A DNA stretch of 12,959 nucleotides from Caldisphaera sp. (GTDB taxonomy: Archaea > Thermoproteota > Thermoprotei_A > Sulfolobales > Acidilobaceae). This document shows positions 2,678-10,214 of this stretch, one piece after another. Positions within the stretch are counted from its first letter, which is position 1. Every line of letters starts with the position of its first letter. Under the pieces are notes generated by a model. That model saw only the letters and a program-made list of their open reading frames with translations, made no database searches and was not told where the DNA came from. A program made the position numbers and the translations under genes. Where the stretch lies: positions 1-12,959 of the forward strand of contig JBMFKU010000031.1 in NCBI GenBank assembly GCA_049971805.1. Direction: 5' to 3'.

Positions 2678-5600
2678 ATGAAAATAAATGAAAAGATATC
2701 TAAGGAAAAATATGATCAACGATTTATAGAAAGTTATGTAAAGGATTATTGGGAGAAAAACAATGTTTATCAATTAATAAAGGAAAAAAGCAAACTATCA
2801 AACAAAAAGTTTTATTTTCTAGATGGTCCTCCTTATGCAAATGCCAATACAATTCATGTTGGTACATTGTGGAATAAGGTTTTAAAGGACACATTATTAA
2901 GGTATTATAGAATGAAAGGATTCAATGTTTGGGATAAGCCAGGATTTGACACACACGGCTTGCCAATAGAAGTTATGATAGAGAAGGAGCTTGGTACAAA
3001 TAATAAAAAGGATATAGTAACAAAAATAGGAGTTGATAATTTTATTAATAAATGTTTAGAATTTGTTAAAGGTAATATAGATGCTATGTCAAAGGACTTT
3101 AAAGAAGTTGGAGTATTTATGGATTGGGAAAACCCATATATAACATATGAAAACTCATACATAGAATCTGGTTGGTATTTAATAAAGAAAGCCTATGAAA
3201 AGGGGTTATTATATAGAGGAAGAAATGTGTTACACTGGTGTCCTAGATGTGAGACGACTTTAGCAGACTATGAAGTTTCTGAGTATAGAGAACTAGAAGA
3301 CCCTTCTATTTATGTTAAGTTTAAGGTTAAAAACGAAAAGAATAGATATTTATTGATCTGGACTACAACTCCATGGACTTTACCAGCAAATGCATTTGTT
3401 ATGGCGCATCCTGATGTAGAATATGTAATAGTCAAAGTAAACGATGAAGAATTAATACTATCTAAAGATAGACTAAAAAAGGTTATGGAGGAAGTCAATG
3501 CCAAAAATTATAATGTAATAAAAGAATTAAAGGGAAAAGACTTGGAAAATCTTGAGTATATACATCCATTAGAGGATGTTGTTAATGCCCAAAAAGATTT
3601 AAGAAAATATCATAAAGTAGTTATGGCACCAGAGGCAGTAATAAGTGGCGAAGGAACAGGTCTAGTCCATTCAGCTCCTGGGCATGGAGAAATAGATGCC
3701 ATTGTAGGATCAAAGATTGGTGTGCCTTTAGTTAGCCTGGTAAATGATCAAGGATATATGGTTAGTGAAGCAGGTAAATATGCAGGGCTATACTTTAGAA
3801 CTGATGCTAATGAAAGAATAATTAAAGATTTAAAAGAAAAAAATGCTTTATTTTATTCAGGAAAAATAAAACATAGATATCCGGTTTGTTGGAGATGCAA
3901 AACACCTCTACTGTTAAAAGCAACAGATCAATGGTTTATTGCAGTTTCTAAAATAAGAGATCAACTTGTAAAAGAGGCGGAAAATATAGAATGGGTTCCA
4001 GAATGGGCTAAGTCAAGATTTATGAATATAGTTGAAAATGTAAGAGATTGGGTTATAAGTAGGCAAAGATTTTGGGGAATTCCTTTACCAATTTGGGTCT
4101 GTGAAAATTGCGGCCATATAGAGGTTTTAGAGAGCACTGATGATATAGAAAGGCTTGGTGGTAAAAAGCCCAAGAACTTGCACAGACCTTGGATAGACGA
4201 GGTTACATTAAAATGTCCCAAATGCAATTCAAATATGAAAAGAGTTGAAGATGTTTTAGATGTTTGGTTTGATAGCGGTATATCATTTTATGCAAGTTTA
4301 GGTTATCCAAGGATAAAAGAACTTTATGAAAAACTTTCTCCAGCAGATTTAATTTTAGAAGGTCATGATCAAACAAGGGGCTGGTTCTTCAGTTTATTAA
4401 GAAGTGGAATAATTGGCTTTAATAAATCGCCATATAAAAGAGTGTTATTGCATGGTTTTGTATTAGATGAACAAGGTAGAGAGATGCATAAATCATTGGG
4501 AAACTATGTCTCTTTTGAAGAATTGATATCAAGATATCCTAGAGATGTAATAAGATATTATGTTCTTCAAAACACTACCTGGGAGGATTTAAGATTTTCA
4601 TGGCGTAATATAGAACAGATATCGAGAAACTTTTCTATAATTTGGAATGTTTTTTCATTCTCATCTATGTACATGAGTTTGGATAAATTTGATCCAAAGG
4701 AAAATGATATAAACAACTTACCATTAGAAATGGAAGATAAATGGTTGATTTCAAGAATTAACAGTTTATTGAGAAAATATAACTTATTGTATTCGTCTTT
4801 AGATGTCCATAATGTAGCAAGGTTATTGTTTGGATTTATTATAGATGATGTTAGTCATTGGTATTTAAAGTTAATTAGAAAGAGGGTATGGGAGGAAGAA
4901 GATAATCCAAGCAAAAGAGCAGCTTACGCAACTTTATATTATGCGCTTAAAAACTGGTTGTTATTAGCTTCACCAATAATACCCTTTATCTCTGAATATT
5001 TATATCAAAATTTCATAAAATTGGCAGAGCCTGAATTACCAGACAGCATATCTTTATTAGAAATACCCGATGCCGATATAACAAAGGTAGATGAGAACTT
5101 AGAAGAAAGAATGGATTTAGCTAGAAAAATAGTAGAAGCCATTATATCAGCAAGAATGAAAGCAGGAATAAAGATAAGGTTTCCAATAAAAAACGTTATG
5201 ATTTCATTAAATAATAAGGAATTAGCTGAAAAAATAATATATATGGAAAAACCAATTAAAGAATTGGCTAATATTAAACAAATTCAATTAGTTGGTCCAG
5301 AATTTTTTGAACAAGCAAAGATTTACAAGCTGGAGCCCATTTACAAAGAACTTGGACCATTATTTAAAAAAGATTTACCTTCAATACTAGATTCTATTAA
5401 ATCTAAAGAAGAAGAAATAGGGTTATCATTAATTAAGCAAGGTAGCTATAAGTTGAATATAAATGGTAGTACATTTACTTTAGAACCAAGGCACTTTAAA
5501 ATACAAGCTTCATACCCCGATTGGTTGGAGGTTGTAGATGCAGATTTCGGAATAATAGCAATTGACAAGAGATTTAGTGAAAATGAATATTTAGAAGGTG

Positions 5601-5851
5601 TCGCAAGAGAAATAATTAGAAGAATACAGTATATGAGAAAGCAATTAGATTTACCAGTTGATTCATTTATAGAAACATGGATTTATGGCGATGAGGAATA
5701 TATAGAAGACATAAAAAGATCAGAAAAATATATTAAAAATGAAACTAGAAGTACAAATATAGTATATGATAACCCACCTAAAGATGTTTTTGTAAGGGAA
5801 TGGGAGGTAGAAGAGAAACGTATAACAATAGGAATAAAGAAAAAGCAATAA
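2678..5851 (+). CDS. ileS: Isoleucine--tRNA ligase (archaeal/eukaryote-type)
   Basis: FLDGPPYAN, HIGH-equivalent HVGT, GFDTHGLPIE, editing-domain WTTTPWT and GTGLVHSAPGHGEID, DWVISRQRFWG, DVWFDSG, EGHDQTRGWF, KMSKS-equivalent EMHKS; 1057 aa. Confidence 0.97.
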   Translation: MKINEKISKEKYDQRFIESYVKDYWEKNNVYQLIKEKSKLSNKKFYFLDGPPYANANTIHVGTLWNKVLKDTLLRYYRMKGFNVWDKPGFDTHGLPIEVMIEKELGTNNKKDIVTKIGVDNFINKCLEFVKGNIDAMSKDFKEVGVFMDWENPYITYENSYIESGWYLIKKAYEKGLLYRGRNVLHWCPRCETTLADYEVSEYRELEDPSIYVKFKVKNEKNRYLLIWTTTPWTLPANAFVMAHPDVEYVIVKVNDEELILSKDRLKKVMEEVNAKNYNVIKELKGKDLENLEYIHPLEDVVNAQKDLRKYHKVVMAPEAVISGEGTGLVHSAPGHGEIDAIVGSKIGVPLVSLVNDQGYMVSEAGKYAGLYFRTDANERIIKDLKEKNALFYSGKIKHRYPVCWRCKTPLLLKATDQWFIAVSKIRDQLVKEAENIEWVPEWAKSRFMNIVENVRDWVISRQRFWGIPLPIWVCENCGHIEVLESTDDIERLGGKKPKNLHRPWIDEVTLKCPKCNSNMKRVEDVLDVWFDSGISFYASLGYPRIKELYEKLSPADLILEGHDQTRGWFFSLLRSGIIGFNKSPYKRVLLHGFVLDEQGREMHKSLGNYVSFEELISRYPRDVIRYYVLQNTTWEDLRFSWRNIEQISRNFSIIWNVFSFSSMYMSLDKFDPKENDINNLPLEMEDKWLISRINSLLRKYNLLYSSLDVHNVARLLFGFIIDDVSHWYLKLIRKRVWEEEDNPSKRAAYATLYYALKNWLLLASPIIPFISEYLYQNFIKLAEPELPDSISLLEIPDADITKVDENLEERMDLARKIVEAIISARMKAGIKIRFPIKNVMISLNNKELAEKIIYMEKPIKELANIKQIQLVGPEFFEQAKIYKLEPIYKELGPLFKKDLPSILDSIKSKEEEIGLSLIKQGSYKLNINGSTFTLEPRHFKIQASYPDWLEVVDADFGIIAIDKRFSENEYLEGVAREIIRRIQYMRKQLDLPVDSFIETWIYGDEEYIEDIKRSEKYIKNETRSTNIVYDNPPKDVFVREWEVEEKRITIGIKKKQ

Positions 5852-6492
5852 TTTATCCAAGCGAAATACATTCATACTTTTATTGTCCAAGAGTATTTTT
5901 CTTTGAAAAACACCTTAAGAAAAAACCTAGCTTAATGAATAGATTTAGGCTTTTTTTAGGTACGTTGTTCCATTTATCTTTTAGAATTAGAGATGTTATT
6001 AAAAGATATTCTTATGAGATTCCACTTGAAACCGATTTAGGAAATGTAAAAATCAGAGGTAGACCTGATGCATTTAAAATAGATAATGAATTAGCTTATA
6101 TAATAGAAAGAAAAAGTTCGAAATCACCATATAAAGGAGCTTGGATAAGTGATATAATGCAAGCTACTGCGTATGGGATTATCATTACTAGAGAAAAACA
6201 ATTATCACAAGCTAAAATAGAAATTAGATATCCCAATGATAAAAGATATTTCTTGATGGATTCCAAATTAACATCTCTTGTCTTAAAAGGCATAGATGAT
6301 ATGATATTGATAAAGTATTATGGCATATTGCCATATGCAAAAAGAGGAAATAGATGTAAGACATGCCCGTATAGAGATGAATGCTTTATGTTAGATGAAG
6401 ACATGGACGATTATAAAAATGATTTATTTGAAAATGGAAGTTGGATAGAAAAATTAAACTTATTGGTGCAGGAAGATCACTCTAATACTTAG
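5800..6492 (+). CDS. cas4: Solo Cas4-family PD-(D/E)XK nuclease with 4Fe-4S cysteines (start codon uncertain)
   Basis: PSEIHSYFYCPR (Cys 1), GTLFH, GRPD, IERK (ExK), QATAY (QxxxY) and CKTCPYRDEC (Cys 2-4) give the complete Cas4/RecB-like signature. No other cas genes or array in the window. Confidence 0.85.
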   Translation: MGGRRETYNNRNKEKAIIYPSEIHSYFYCPRVFFFEKHLKKKPSLMNRFRLFLGTLFHLSFRIRDVIKRYSYEIPLETDLGNVKIRGRPDAFKIDNELAYIIERKSSKSPYKGAWISDIMQATAYGIIITREKQLSQAKIEIRYPNDKRYFLMDSKLTSLVLKGIDDMILIKYYGILPYAKRGNRCKTCPYRDECFMLDEDMDDYKNDLFENGSWIEKLNLLVQEDHSNT

Positions 6493-6508
6493 AAAGGGAT
6501 AGTTGAGA

Positions 6509-7441
6509 ATGTCAGAAAATGAAGATATAATTGAGAAAAAAGTACATGAAATTTATAGCGGGATAGCTCAGAAAGGGTTAATGATTAGAGACCCAAAAGA
6601 AGCTGTTAAAATACTAGAAAAAAATTATAAGCTAATAGTTGATGAGAAAATTGTAAAACTAGTTTATGCTTCATTTTTAAATGGTAAACCAGTTTTGTTT
6701 GAGGGACCACCTGGTACTGGGAAAACAGAAATTGGTGAGGCATTACTTGAATTATGGAGTGGTAAGAAAAGTTTTTTGCTTCCTTGCAGTGAAAATTATG
6801 ATGAATATAAAGTTATTGGAGACTTTCATCCTTTAATGGCAATGAAGATGGGCTTTACTGAAGAATCCTTTGTTCCAAGGCCAATGCTAGCTGCGATGTT
6901 ATTAGATGCTGGTATTTTGGTAGACGAAATAAGAAGAAGTAGCGACGAGTTTCAGAATTTATTGTTAGATATAATTGATAAGAGAAGAATAGTTGTTCCA
7001 GAGCTTAAGAGAATTTTTCATGCATCAGGGTCTGGATTTCAAATAATTTTTACGAGCAATCCTGATGATGTAGCCCAAAACGAGTTAAGCGATGCATTTT
7101 TAAGGAGAGTTATTAGAATAAAGTTTGATTATCCAAGTAAGGAAATTGAAAGCAAGATAGTTAAAATAAGAAGCCTTGACGAGCCTAATATATCGAATGA
7201 TATGATTAACATAATTTTGAAAATAATAATTAAATTAAGAGAAAGTTCAATATTACATAAACCTGGGGTTGATGAAACGGTTACTTGGGCAAAAATGGCA
7301 CAATTTTTGGCTAAATTAGAAAATGAAGATCAAGTAAGTATGAAGCATATAAAAGAGTCTGCTATTTCATTATTATCCAAGAGATCCGAAGATGAAAAAA
7401 TAATTGAAAATGTGATAAACGATGTCATATCCCAGTATTAA
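6509..7441 (+). CDS. MoxR-family AAA+ ATPase
   Basis: Walker A GPPGTGKT, Walker B ILVDE, FQNLLL, sensor TSNP, Arg finger LSDAFLRR, lid KPGVDE. ATG 6509 is preferred over TTG 6503 because of its spacing from GGGAT (6496-6500). Confidence 0.9.
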   Translation: MSENEDIIEKKVHEIYSGIAQKGLMIRDPKEAVKILEKNYKLIVDEKIVKLVYASFLNGKPVLFEGPPGTGKTEIGEALLELWSGKKSFLLPCSENYDEYKVIGDFHPLMAMKMGFTEESFVPRPMLAAMLLDAGILVDEIRRSSDEFQNLLLDIIDKRRIVVPELKRIFHASGSGFQIIFTSNPDDVAQNELSDAFLRRVIRIKFDYPSKEIESKIVKIRSLDEPNISNDMINIILKIIIKLRESSILHKPGVDETVTWAKMAQFLAKLENEDQVSMKHIKESAISLLSKRSEDEKIIENVINDVISQY

Positions 7442-9356
7442 TTATAATAAGCTTCTTAAAATAATACCAGATATAATGGAAAAGCTAAGAAATAGGGGAT
7501 TTAAATTTGGGGCTAGCTATTCGTTACAAATATTAAACTTAGTAAATGCCTATTCATTATTTGATAATACCCAAGTTCTAAGTTATAACGATGTAGTTCA
7601 AATATTTCTTTCTGTATTAGCTAGAAATAGTCATGAAGAGAAGATAGTAAAGGAATTACTTAATGAAGAATTTTTTGACAAAAACGATTTTATAATAAAG
7701 GAATTATATTTGATTAAGGAAAAATTTGAAAATAAACAGATTTTGCCGGAAAAATTAAATGAAAAAGATTATGAGCATTTTGTTATATTAAAAGCATTAA
7801 ATGCTGTGAGAAAGCAAGGTAAGTTTTATAGGCTTGTAAATGAGTCAGATTTTAAAGAAATAACAAGAATAGCATCTGAAATGGAAGAAAAGGAGATAGA
7901 GGATAAAATTATATCTTTAATAAGATCAATGAATCCAGAAGAAATTGTAAAATTGCAAAGGAGCGACCTATTTTATAAATCTTTAAATTATTTGCCAATT
8001 AAGAAATTAGAAGATTTAGGACTGCTATTAAACAAAAGACATAATAAGAAAGCAGTTATTGAAATAGGGAAAGCAATTAAAGAAAGGGTAATTAAAGGAG
8101 AAAAGGTAAATGCTAAACAAGTATGGGATTTGTTAAAATCCCTCGATATGCTTGATGACATTGTTGAAAAAGAATTAATGTTGCAAGAACAATCTTTAGT
8201 TAAAAGGTCAAATCTCAACTTAAATGATATTAATAAATTAAGTGGGATAGAAAACGGAGAGCTGGTACCAATGTTAATAAATAGATATATAAAATCTGCA
8301 AAAACTAGAAATGATATAATTAATATAATCAGAAATGTTAATCCTAAGGATTTATGGAAGTTAAATAGATCTCCAATCCAAGGAGACGAAGGAGAGCTAA
8401 TTAATGCTGCAATATATTCATCAATGGCATTAAAAGAAAGCTTAGAGTATATTAAAACTAATAATGAAGGAAATAAGATAATGTCTAGGTTCTATTTAAG
8501 CAAAGCCCAAAATACATTAAATAAATTAGAAAATAAAAATATATCTTTAGGAAATGTGAACAAATCTTCGATACTTTCTATCATAGTTAAAGCAGACAAA
8601 TTATTGGATTTCTTGGAAAAGGGAGAAACGGCTTTTTTAGATTCCTTCGATCTTCCATTGGCATTTGATATTTTAAGAAATATGTACAAAAGATTAGATG
8701 GAGAGCAAAAGATAAAAATAGAAAGAATTGCAAAAAATTATCTGATAAAAACGTTAAGCCTGAAGGGATATAAAAAATTACCTATAAAGAAGAAGTCTAC
8801 AATAAAATCAGGTAAACTGTTAATTAAGGAAACATCAATGAACATAATAAGAAACAAAGAAGATTTTTTAGTATATAAGAGAAAAGTAAAAGGGAAGCAA
8901 ATATCATTGGCATTAGATATAAGCAGCTCGATGGCAGATTACTCATCTTGGGCATTGAGCATTTCGTCAATATTTTTACATAACATAAATAAACTGGTTT
9001 TATTTTCATCAAAGCCTATTGTATATAAAGGACTTAGCTTTAATAAGATAGTTAAATTGCTTTTGTCTTTAGAATTTTCAGGATATACAGATATATCATC
9101 TGCTTTAAATGAATTAAAGGATAAAAATAATAATCTTGGCGTGATTATTACAGATTTAAAGCAAACAATTAAAAACAGAAATCCTGAGTCTATAACTAAA
9201 GAATTAACAAATTATGGTATGAAGTTAATTTTCATTTTACCTAAAAATCATGATAATAGGGAAAAACATCTAATAGAAGAAAATGGGGGTATAGTAAAAG
9301 TTGTTTCTTCCCCAGAAGGTGCTGCTAGAGAAATAATAAGGATATTAAGGTATTAA
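7422..9356 (+). CDS. vWA (MIDAS) domain protein, CoxE/ViaA-like partner of the MoxR ATPase
   Basis: C-terminal LALDISSSM (DxSxS), GYTDISSAL and IITD MIDAS motifs, with a long predicted helical N-terminal/middle region. Overlaps the ATPase by 20 nt; GTGAT SD-like site at 7412-7416. Confidence 0.85.
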   Translation: MSYPSINYNKLLKIIPDIMEKLRNRGFKFGASYSLQILNLVNAYSLFDNTQVLSYNDVVQIFLSVLARNSHEEKIVKELLNEEFFDKNDFIIKELYLIKEKFENKQILPEKLNEKDYEHFVILKALNAVRKQGKFYRLVNESDFKEITRIASEMEEKEIEDKIISLIRSMNPEEIVKLQRSDLFYKSLNYLPIKKLEDLGLLLNKRHNKKAVIEIGKAIKERVIKGEKVNAKQVWDLLKSLDMLDDIVEKELMLQEQSLVKRSNLNLNDINKLSGIENGELVPMLINRYIKSAKTRNDIINIIRNVNPKDLWKLNRSPIQGDEGELINAAIYSSMALKESLEYIKTNNEGNKIMSRFYLSKAQNTLNKLENKNISLGNVNKSSILSIIVKADKLLDFLEKGETAFLDSFDLPLAFDILRNMYKRLDGEQKIKIERIAKNYLIKTLSLKGYKKLPIKKKSTIKSGKLLIKETSMNIIRNKEDFLVYKRKVKGKQISLALDISSSMADYSSWALSISSIFLHNINKLVLFSSKPIVYKGLSFNKIVKLLLSLEFSGYTDISSALNELKDKNNNLGVIITDLKQTIKNRNPESITKELTNYGMKLIFILPKNHDNREKHLIEENGGIVKVVSSPEGAAREIIRILRY

Positions 9357-10214
9357 TTTATTAAATTTTCCTTTTCTTAGGTCCATCACAGTTTTAACTA
9401 GACTTCCTATTCCAATTGCCCCAACTACAAATACTACTAATATAAAACCTATATCTATAGCGCTTAGATTAGGTATTGGATTACCAGTTGATATAGCTAG
9501 GTTATCTATGGAAGGTAATGCAAGAATTAAAGCGCCTATAATTGAAAATGCTAGTCCTCCATAATAAAGTGTATTTCCTGCAGTCTTTAAACCTACATAT
9601 TTTATTTGAGATTCATTATATCCCATTTTTTTCATTAATCCACCAAAAAATGCCCCTATGATTATTTGCATTGTCATTGTTCCTAGACCAAAGAATAGAC
9701 CTGGTAAGGGAGCATAAATAATTGATGGTACTTTAGGTGCTAAAATAAATGTTATTATAGTTGCATATGCTCCAAAACCAAAACCTGCTATTAGTCCATG
9801 AACTACAGTCATTTTTAATGGAACATCTTTCTTTGGTTCAATTCTTTCAGCCTTTTCTGTGTGTCTATGGGTTGGAATTAAATGAACATGCAAATATTTT
9901 CCATGCATTACATATGATCCTGCAATAAACATAACTATACCAACTATTATGTACACAGGACCGTCTAGGTTATATACTTGATAAATCCTTGCTAAACCTA
10001 TATAGCCGAGGGTAGTAAGAAAGGCTCTTTGTATTGTAAACCCGAGAGAAAACAAAAGACCTGCTAAAAGGCCTCCTTTTGTGCTATATTTTCCTACAGC
10101 ATAACTAAATGTTATTGGCCATGTATGTTCATCTGGAGTAATTCCATGTAATGTACCTAAAATATAAGATATTGCTATAATAGCACCTAGTGTTAATGTT
10201 CCTGAAGGATTCAA
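9345..10214 (-). CDS. Membrane protein of NiCoT/UreH-like (nickel/cobalt transporter-related) type; 5' end interrupted by an in-frame stop, possibly a pseudogene
   Basis: Multiple hydrophobic segments, LGTLHGITPDEH (HxxxxD-H-like) motif, His-rich loop HGKYLHVHLIPTHRH and a second motif VHGLIAGFG. The annotated TTG has no SD of its own. The SD-led ATG at 10235 is in frame but is followed by TAA at 10220-10218. Confidence 0.7.
   Translation of the reverse strand: MNPSGTLTLGAIIAISYILGTLHGITPDEHTWPITFSYAVGKYSTKGGLLAGLLFSLGFTIQRAFLTTLGYIGLARIYQVYNLDGPVYIIVGIVMFIAGSYVMHGKYLHVHLIPTHRHTEKAERIEPKKDVPLKMTVVHGLIAGFGFGAYATIITFILAPKVPSIIYAPLPGLFFGLGTMTMQIIIGAFFGGLMKKMGYNESQIKYVGLKTAGNTLYYGGLAFSIIGALILALPSIDNLAISTGNPIPNLSAIDIGFILVVFVVGAIGIGSLVKTVMDLRKGKFNKLIP
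9366..9378 (+). terminator. Possible archaeal oligo-T terminator of the ileS-cas4-moxR-vWA unit
   Basis: Pyrimidine tract TTTTCCTTTTCTT about 10 nt after the vWA stop. It lies inside the convergent CDS, so it could simply reflect Lys/Arg codons on the other strand. Confidence 0.3.

Follow-up and report, generated by a model that had tools for sequence, protein, structure and literature searches.

Downstream of the isoleucyl-tRNA synthetase gene (ileS) on contig JBMFKU010000031.1 of Caldisphaera sp. lie three tightly packed genes, which encode a Cas4-family nuclease, a MoxR-type AAA+ ATPase and a large protein with a von Willebrand factor A (vWA) domain. The four genes are best read as two independent gene units that stand side by side and are probably carried on one transcript: ileS with a housekeeping solo Cas4, beside an ATPase-adaptor pair resembling NorQD and CbbQO that would act on a client probably linked to translation. 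We give this reading a probability of roughly two in three. The analyzed stretch, hereafter the window, is the complete 12,959-bp contig, which belongs to a 1.52-Mb archaeal genome bin of 96.6% completeness and ~30% G+C. The sequence-only reading that preceded this analysis had joined cas4, moxR and the vWA gene into one chaperone-matured or chaperone-gated nuclease module. That proposal was not supported by comparison with other genomes, in which Cas4 persists without the pair, the pair occurs without Cas4, and ribosomal protein S19 is the more constant neighbor of the pair. A three-gene chaperone-gated nuclease is therefore at best a facultative, lineage-specific association.

Distribution and gene order of cas4 and moxR-vWA

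All four genes are encoded in the same orientation (+). The ileS gene (positions 2678-5851; 1057 amino acids; Pfam tRNA-synt_1 at 4.5e-123, and Anticodon_1) overlaps by 52 nt (5800-5851) with cas4 (5800-6492), which encodes a solo Cas4-family PD-(D/E)XK nuclease of 230 amino acids (TIGR00372, PF01930). The moxR gene, with a single AAA_5 module, spans 6503-7441 if its 312 codons are counted from a TTG, and the gap to cas4 is then 10 nt; it is 16 nt from the ATG at 6509, which is the position from which the MoxR orthologues align and is likely the true start. The vWA gene (7422-9356; 644 amino acids) overlaps the end of moxR by 20 nt (7422-7441). The co-oriented, tightly packed arrangement of the three downstream genes is thus as the sequence-only reading had described it, including the gap of 16 nt to the ATG.

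The distribution of these genes was followed across 251 evenly sampled genomes of the class, in which a MoxR orthologue was defined by E<=1e-40 and a Cas4 orthologue by E<=1e-15, and co-occurrence was tabulated by our own cross-reading of the two lists. MoxR orthologues were found in 95 genomes and Cas4 orthologues in 55. Within the window's family (45 genomes, including that of the window), both were present in 27, Cas4 only in 17 and MoxR only in none, and a single genome, at 87% completeness, had neither. Of the 206 genomes outside the family, one had both, 10 had Cas4 only, 67 had MoxR only and 128 had neither. In the sole outside genome with both, the genes are located on separate contigs, and the MoxR locus does not contain Cas4. 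The distributions of Cas4 and of MoxR-vWA are independent. The ileS-cas4 arrangement, moreover, is retained in the 17 family members without a MoxR orthologue. Of 41 related genomes in a first set, 24 have the vWA protein and 26 have Cas4; MoxR was matched at E<=0.001 in 35 genomes and by orthologues of high identity (52-79%) in 25. Within this smaller set, a member of the window's family whose genome is 55% complete (G017) has the order ileS-moxR-vWA, with Cas4 missing from between (L039).

The closest relatives of the window show how the two parts come apart. In two species of the window's genus, the order orf83-ileS-cas4 is followed within 10-48 nt by a radical-SAM gene, and in two sister species moxR-vWA occupies the same spot between cas4 and the radical-SAM gene. 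In one further genus, MoxR was found in 3/8 genomes and Cas4 in 8/8. Identity to the window's Cas4 is 67-68% for Cas4 proteins from genomes without MoxR-vWA and 68-70% for those from genomes that have it, and the columns of the active site and of the cysteines are still invariant where the pair is missing. The clean loss of moxR-vWA with Cas4 conserved, together with the variation within the second genus, argues that Cas4 is independent of the pair.

The C-terminal tail of Cas4 points in the same direction. This tail comprises 34 amino acids, comes after Cys195 (LDEDMDDYKNDLFE), and carries a motif, LDExL...xLxEPGxW, that is shared by orthologues; the sequence-only reading had proposed that its acidic residues serve as a handle for the metal ion-dependent adhesion site (MIDAS) of the vWA protein. 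Where MoxR-vWA is missing (L042-L047), all six Cas4 proteins carry the motif just the same, and it is absent from the Cas4 of a locus that does have the pair (L048). The tail is also far less acidic at two other loci. The acidic tail thus does not track the presence of MoxR-vWA, and its proposed role as a MIDAS handle was not borne out.

Gene neighborhoods were compared at 45 MoxR loci, including that of the window, and at 26 Cas4 loci, with neighbors labeled by Pfam annotation and BLAST-labeled gene maps. The vWA gene follows moxR in 43/45 loci, the exceptions being a locus that reaches a contig end and one with a short, divergent vWA gene. The gene for ribosomal protein S19 lies directly 3' of the vWA gene and on the same strand in 26/45 loci, with gaps of 6-246 nt, and no more than five genes away in 35/45. 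Cas4 is encoded directly 5' of MoxR in 18/45 loci from at least two families, and isoleucyl-tRNA synthetase (IleRS) directly 5' of Cas4 in 20/26 Cas4 loci. It is S19, and not Cas4, that is the most constant neighbor of MoxR-vWA. The conservation of the trio, to which the sequence-only reading had looked, is therefore partial: the cas4-moxR-vWA order does recur, as just described, but its parts separate in the 17 family members with Cas4 only and in the 67 outside genomes with MoxR only.

The ribosomal setting of the pair is found well beyond the window's family. Three loci show the order L3-L4-L23-L2-MoxR-vWA-S19-L22-S3, and five more differ from it only in a short additional open reading frame before MoxR; S19 adjacency is also seen in other orders of the class. 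In these eight loci, which come from other families of the order, moxR-vWA interrupts the L2-S19 junction, an otherwise universal feature of the ribosomal-protein operon. In the window's own family, most genera have the order orf83-ileS-cas4-moxR-vWA-S19-L22-S3. In the window's genome, the ribosomal operon is located on a different contig, behind the methionyl-tRNA synthetase gene and a small regulator, and in the window's genus the block orf83-ileS-cas4-moxR-vWA has moved away from the ribosomal operon. Since the pair normally lies directly upstream of rps19-rpl22-rps3, and in many cases has rpl2 on its other side, its client is probably a component of the translation machinery rather than Cas4.

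At one locus (L028, in genome G008), ileS and cas4 are separated by a divergent SufB/SufD/SufC iron-sulfur (Fe-S) assembly cluster. The complete ileS-cas4-moxR-vWA order also occurs in a genome of another family (G029), and on one of its contigs (C2) the cas4-moxR stretch occurs twice (17174-18787 and 53086-54699), in opposite orientation and with identical scores, through an inverted duplication or else an artefact of assembly.

Predicted proteins and their proposed action

Family scores and fold matches agree with the identities that had been assigned to the three downstream genes from sequence. Cas4 scores 72.6 bits against TIGR00372 (cut-off 65) and 37.8 bits against PF01930 (cut-off 22.7), matches the Cas4 models of PADLOC at 2.9e-21, and has as its nearest solved chains 4r5q (1.4e-9) and 4ic1 (9.1e-9). 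Key residues proved to be invariant or nearly so in all three alignments, in line with the intact motifs seen in the sequence-only reading. In the alignment of 25 Cas4 sequences, Cys29 is nearly invariant and Asp90, Glu103, Lys105, Gln121, Tyr125, Cys186, Cys189 and Cys195 are invariant; these comprise the four Fe-S cysteines and the RecB-type D, ExK and QxxxY residues. By its four conserved cysteines, the protein is predicted to carry an Fe-S cluster site.

This Cas4 is the single match to its family in the whole genome. Cas1 (PF01867) and Cas2 (PF09827) have no match anywhere in the genome at its 96.6% completeness, and the window contains no CRISPR-like repeat array, in agreement with the earlier statement that cas1, cas2 and a CRISPR array are missing from the window. 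The window's Cas4 is therefore a genuine solo Cas4 with no CRISPR role in this genome. According to the passages of PMC5704561 that deal with them, solo-cas4 genes are common in archaea, have no known function, are mainly vertically inherited and evolve like ordinary cellular genes; the abstract of that paper suggests that they act in uncharacterized defense or repair.

The MoxR protein consists of a single AAA_5 module (69.8 bits; cut-off 22). Across 20 aligned sequences, the Walker A stretch GPPGTGKT (residues 68-75), Asp141 of Walker B, the sensor 1 residue Asn186 and the arginines Arg201/Arg202 are invariant, and Glu142 of Walker B is nearly so. Orthologues across the class are 50-77% identical, and the protein evolves very slowly. 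Among named records, its nearest relatives are found in 'Acidilobaceae archaeon UBA158' (76% identity) and in Aeropyrum, Thermogladius and Desulfurococcales. A profile search of the PDB gave CbbQ at 35.8 bits and NorQ at 32.4 bits. Midasin was considered as the nearest relative and rejected: its top rank in that search, with 97.7 bits, is a sum over tandem modules, the best of which scores 30.8 bits and does not exceed CbbQ. Two named equivalogs were matched below their cut-offs, GvpN (TIGR02640) with 52.7 of 266.8 bits and MadB (NF047784) with 107.7 of 475 bits. The top curated NCBIfam match, 'MadB family AAA-type ATPase', is thus far from its threshold, and no control genome scored above the cut-off of the MadB model.

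The vWA protein is composed of an all-helical N-terminal region of ~465 amino acids (7422-8816), which is assigned to no family, and, at the C-terminus (8817-9356), a CoxE-like VWA domain whose MIDAS is complete. The domain matches VWA_CoxE (PF05762) at residues 473-610 with 25.7 bits, slightly below the cut-off of 26.4; the same family was matched by 34/34 aligned orthologues at E<=1, with a best value of 2.8e-16. The MIDAS residues Asp499-x-Ser501-x-Ser503, Thr556 and Asp578 are invariant in these 34 sequences. In an AlphaFold model of the full-length protein (predicted local distance difference test score, pLDDT, 89.5), residues 490-644, which make up the C-terminal domain, align with solved VWA domains with Z 14-15 and a root-mean-square deviation (rmsd) of 2.6-3.0 Å over ~152-156 residues, and the VWA of NorD (9qh8_G) with Z 14.0 over residues 406-644. 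With an AAA_5 ATPase and an adjoining MIDAS-containing vWA protein at 43/45 loci, the earlier assignment of the two partners to the MoxR-vWA chaperone pairs stands.

Folded alone, the N-terminal region yields an all-helical AF2 model with pLDDT 88.9 that has no specific fold match: Foldseek reached E 1.2e-3 at best, and the highest VIA Z was 8.8, over 78 residues. The region matches no Pfam or NCBIfam family. A profile of it retrieved 126 representatives at E<=1e-3 from 1.84 billion proteins, mostly of 620-710 amino acids. The first ~90 residues (~8-100; window positions 7422-7700) form a small helical module that also opens shorter CoxE-type VWA proteins of 400-460 amino acids; this module may dock to the ATPase. 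Protein Atlas returned only generic VWA clusters below 0.9, and a search of genome contigs for loci related to that of the vWA protein found no relative.

Homology of the N-terminal domain to Ro60 (TROVE) was also considered and was not upheld. Ro60 ranked first in a Foldseek search with the full-length model (E 1.1e-6), but the template modeling (TM) score was only 0.2-0.27 and the rmsd ~20 Å, and a profile match of the vWA protein to 1yvp (Ro60) was weak (E 0.0077). Since Ro60 is not recovered when the N-domain is folded and searched alone, we treat the resemblance as one of architecture only. A TROVE Pfam match was not found.

In terms of the two units proposed here, the first would consist of ileS and a vertically inherited solo Cas4, a family-wide housekeeping Fe-S PD-(D/E)XK nuclease whose role would most likely be DNA end processing or repair. 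In the second, a MoxR-type AAA+ ATPase would be paired with a large vWA/MIDAS adaptor of CoxE-like type, on the plan of NorQ-NorD or CbbQ-CbbO, and the genes from ileS to vWA would be co-transcribed. In the NorQD system, as described in excerpts of PMC13036017, the VWA domain inserts a finger into the pore of the ATPase, and a linker of the adaptor is put under strain by the ATPase; MoxR-VWA pairs are presented in these excerpts as metal-insertion chaperones. By analogy with NorQD, the ATPase hexamer would pull on the vWA adaptor, of which the MIDAS site and the helical N-domain would hold the client.

The neighbors of the block are housekeeping genes, and almost all genes of the window share the + strand. 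From its 5' end, the window encodes a TtuA/NcsA-like tRNA thiolase, a radical-SAM protein, orf83, IleRS, Cas4, MoxR, the vWA protein, the convergent orf289, arginyl-tRNA synthetase (ArgRS) and the start of an aminotransferase. The tRNA 2-thiolation and radical-SAM genes (296-2358, +) share a 4-nt overlap and are kept together in relatives, sometimes flipped with respect to the ileS block. The small conserved gene orf83 (2415-2666, +; 83 amino acids) is found 5' of ileS in most relatives; by tblastn and blastp it is 36-67% identical and immediately 5' of ileS in many loci. It has no credible Pfam or NCBIfam family and is part of the ileS-cas4 block, not of the MoxR-vWA pair. It is still in position at a locus from which ileS is absent (L032). 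Finally, orf289 (9345-10214, -) is convergent with the vWA gene, whose 3' end it overlaps by 12 nt; it is 77-85% identical in every species of the window's genus examined, where it adjoins ArgRS or orf83, and it matches no Pfam, NCBIfam or PADLOC family. An Rfam scan of the window gave no RNA family.

Alternative readings

Several observations weigh against the separation of the four genes into two units with a translational client. Wherever Cas4 and MoxR-vWA are both found with assembled context, in the window's family and in one other, they adjoin in the same order. Cas4 also stays with MoxR-vWA where ileS has been displaced, either by the inserted SufBCD cluster (L028) or by its absence (L032), which fits a facultative link, and the tight spacing of the three genes (a gap of 10-16 nt and an overlap of 20 nt) suggests co-expression. 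The Cas4 search, furthermore, was made with a single protein query, so that at E<=1e-15 more divergent solo Cas4 proteins of other families would be missed. The translational client is proposed from gene neighborhood alone, and the loci compared were picked from search hits rather than sampled at random, from genomes that are kin, in which neither adjacency nor its absence amounts to many independent events. The counts therefore describe a conserved ancestral layout and not independent events. Lastly, the pair was not found in many families of the 251-genome sample (0/41, 0/33 and 0/17 genomes in three of them), and it is therefore no universal ribosome factor.

A more far-reaching proposal, which we advance tentatively and with rather low expectation, is that MoxR-vWA is an ATP-driven assembly or remodeling factor of the archaeal translation machinery, with a ribosomal subunit, a ribosomal protein or IleRS as its client. 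It would then be a two-protein functional counterpart of eukaryotic Rea1/midasin, kept in the ribosomal cluster of many Thermoprotei, and in the Acidilobaceae the ileS-linked Cas4 may be a facultative nuclease that it recruited. We know of no dedicated AAA+ remodeler of archaeal ribosome assembly.

That cas4, moxR and vWA form a single module, in which MoxR-vWA matures, metallates or gates Cas4, for example by way of the acidic tail at the MIDAS, is unlikely. The adjacency of Cas4 and MoxR at 18/45 loci in two families, its tight spacing and its persistence at L028 and L032 speak for such a module, as do the Fe-S site predicted for Cas4 and the metal-insertion role of MoxR-VWA pairs in the excerpts of PMC13036017. 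Nevertheless, Cas4 is intact and equally conserved in the 17/45 family members that lack MoxR-vWA, 67/206 genomes outside the family have MoxR-vWA without a Cas4 of the window's type, the tail does not follow the pair, and the adjacency itself is explicable by common descent within one lineage.

It is also quite unlikely that all four genes serve one translation-linked process, such as the quality control or processing of RNA or ribonucleoproteins, in which Cas4 would be the nuclease arm and MoxR-vWA the remodeler. The proximity of ileS to MoxR in several families, where it lies 5' of MoxR directly or one gene off (L035, L036, L039, L048), the position of MoxR-vWA next to S19 and L2, and the presence of a tRNA-thiolation gene and ArgRS in the same window are all in line with this reading, as is the first rank of Ro60, which combines a helical ring with a VWA domain and acts in RNA quality control, in the Foldseek search with the full vWA model. 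Yet the Ro60 match has a low TM score and a high rmsd, the N-domain alone does not recover it, and no TROVE family match appeared; the distributions of Cas4 and MoxR-vWA are independent, and known Cas4 enzymes act on DNA.

Least of all do the data favor a new antiviral defense system in which a nuclease and an ATPase would be combined with a vWA sensor: solo Cas4 has been suggested to act in defense or repair (PMC5704561, as above) and MoxR-vWA modules are reported to occur in conflict systems (PMC7159879), but this very improbable reading, and with it the defense function that had been proposed earlier, is opposed by a PADLOC search that returned Cas4 adaptation models only (no family for vWA, and a best MoxR value of 2.7e-4 that is not credible), by a bpMoxR (PF20030) score of 18.5 bits under a cut-off of 27, by housekeeping neighbors, by a MoxR identity of 50-77% across the class that is the opposite of what fast-evolving defense genes show, and by stable, vertically inherited synteny.

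Comparison with known systems

Once the attractive but thinly supported idea of a new nuclease or defense system is set aside, the Cas4 part of the window is ordinary, and the more interesting lead, as judged from synteny and with the caveat that in the window itself the pair does not lie beside ribosomal genes, would be the ribosome-linked chaperone pair. A search of open-access papers and bioRxiv found no description of a solo Cas4 overlapping ileS or of MoxR-vWA in a ribosomal operon; PMC4124505, in the part considered, concerns a viral MoxR.

The window's Cas4 agrees with the archaeal solo-Cas4 proteins (COG1468/PF01930/TIGR00372; Hudaiberdiev et al. 2017, PMC5704561) in its four cysteines, its D-ExK and QxxxY motifs and its scores above the family cut-offs. 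As in the portion of that paper devoted to them, it is encoded outside a CRISPR-cas locus and is vertically inherited within the family. It differs in its overlap with the 3' end of ileS and in its conserved 34-residue tail (LDE...EPGxW). The main text of PMC5704561 contains no mention of MoxR, vWA or isoleucyl. As a family-wide gene that overlaps ileS, this solo Cas4 offers a clean case for asking what role such proteins have in genomes without CRISPR.

For the pair, the closest architectural parallels are NorQ-NorD and CbbQ-CbbO, both with a CGN-type MoxR ATPase, in which an AAA_5 ATPase gene is likewise followed by one for a ~70 kDa partner with a C-terminal VWA/MIDAS domain, and which are matched by the MoxR profile (35.8 bits for CbbQ and 32.4 for NorQ) and by the fold of the NorD VWA (Z 14.0). 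Unlike in those systems, no nitric oxide reductase or rubisco genes lie near the window's pair, whose context is ileS and ribosomal genes, and the N-terminal 465 amino acids of its vWA protein have no detectable relative outside a narrow family. CoxD-CoxE, whose MoxR ATPase and VWA partner serve in the maturation of CO dehydrogenase, shares the VWA_CoxE domain, with all 34 orthologues matched and the window's protein at 25.7 against 26.4 bits; CO dehydrogenase genes, however, are found at none of the examined loci. Ro60/TROVE, which binds misfolded RNA, has the same succession of a helical N-region and a C-terminal VWA/MIDAS domain, and is set apart by the low TM score (0.2-0.27), by the failure of the N-domain alone to recover it and by the lack of a TROVE Pfam match.

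Rea1/midasin, which acts in eukaryotic ribosome biogenesis, resembles the pair in combining AAA_5 with MIDAS and in the link to ribosomal genes, and the MIDAS-domain entries 8ql1_C and 6qtb_D are among the fold matches of the vWA protein. It carries six tandem AAA_5 modules and the MIDAS in one chain, whereas the window encodes one AAA module and divides the system between two proteins. The likeness to midasin is at most a functional analogy, with the ribosome link drawn from gene order alone. What emerges as the lead is a slowly evolving MoxR-vWA pair that, in many hyperthermophilic archaea, is lodged within the ribosomal-protein operon, and if this link in gene order reflects function, the pair would provide a testable prokaryotic parallel to midasin.

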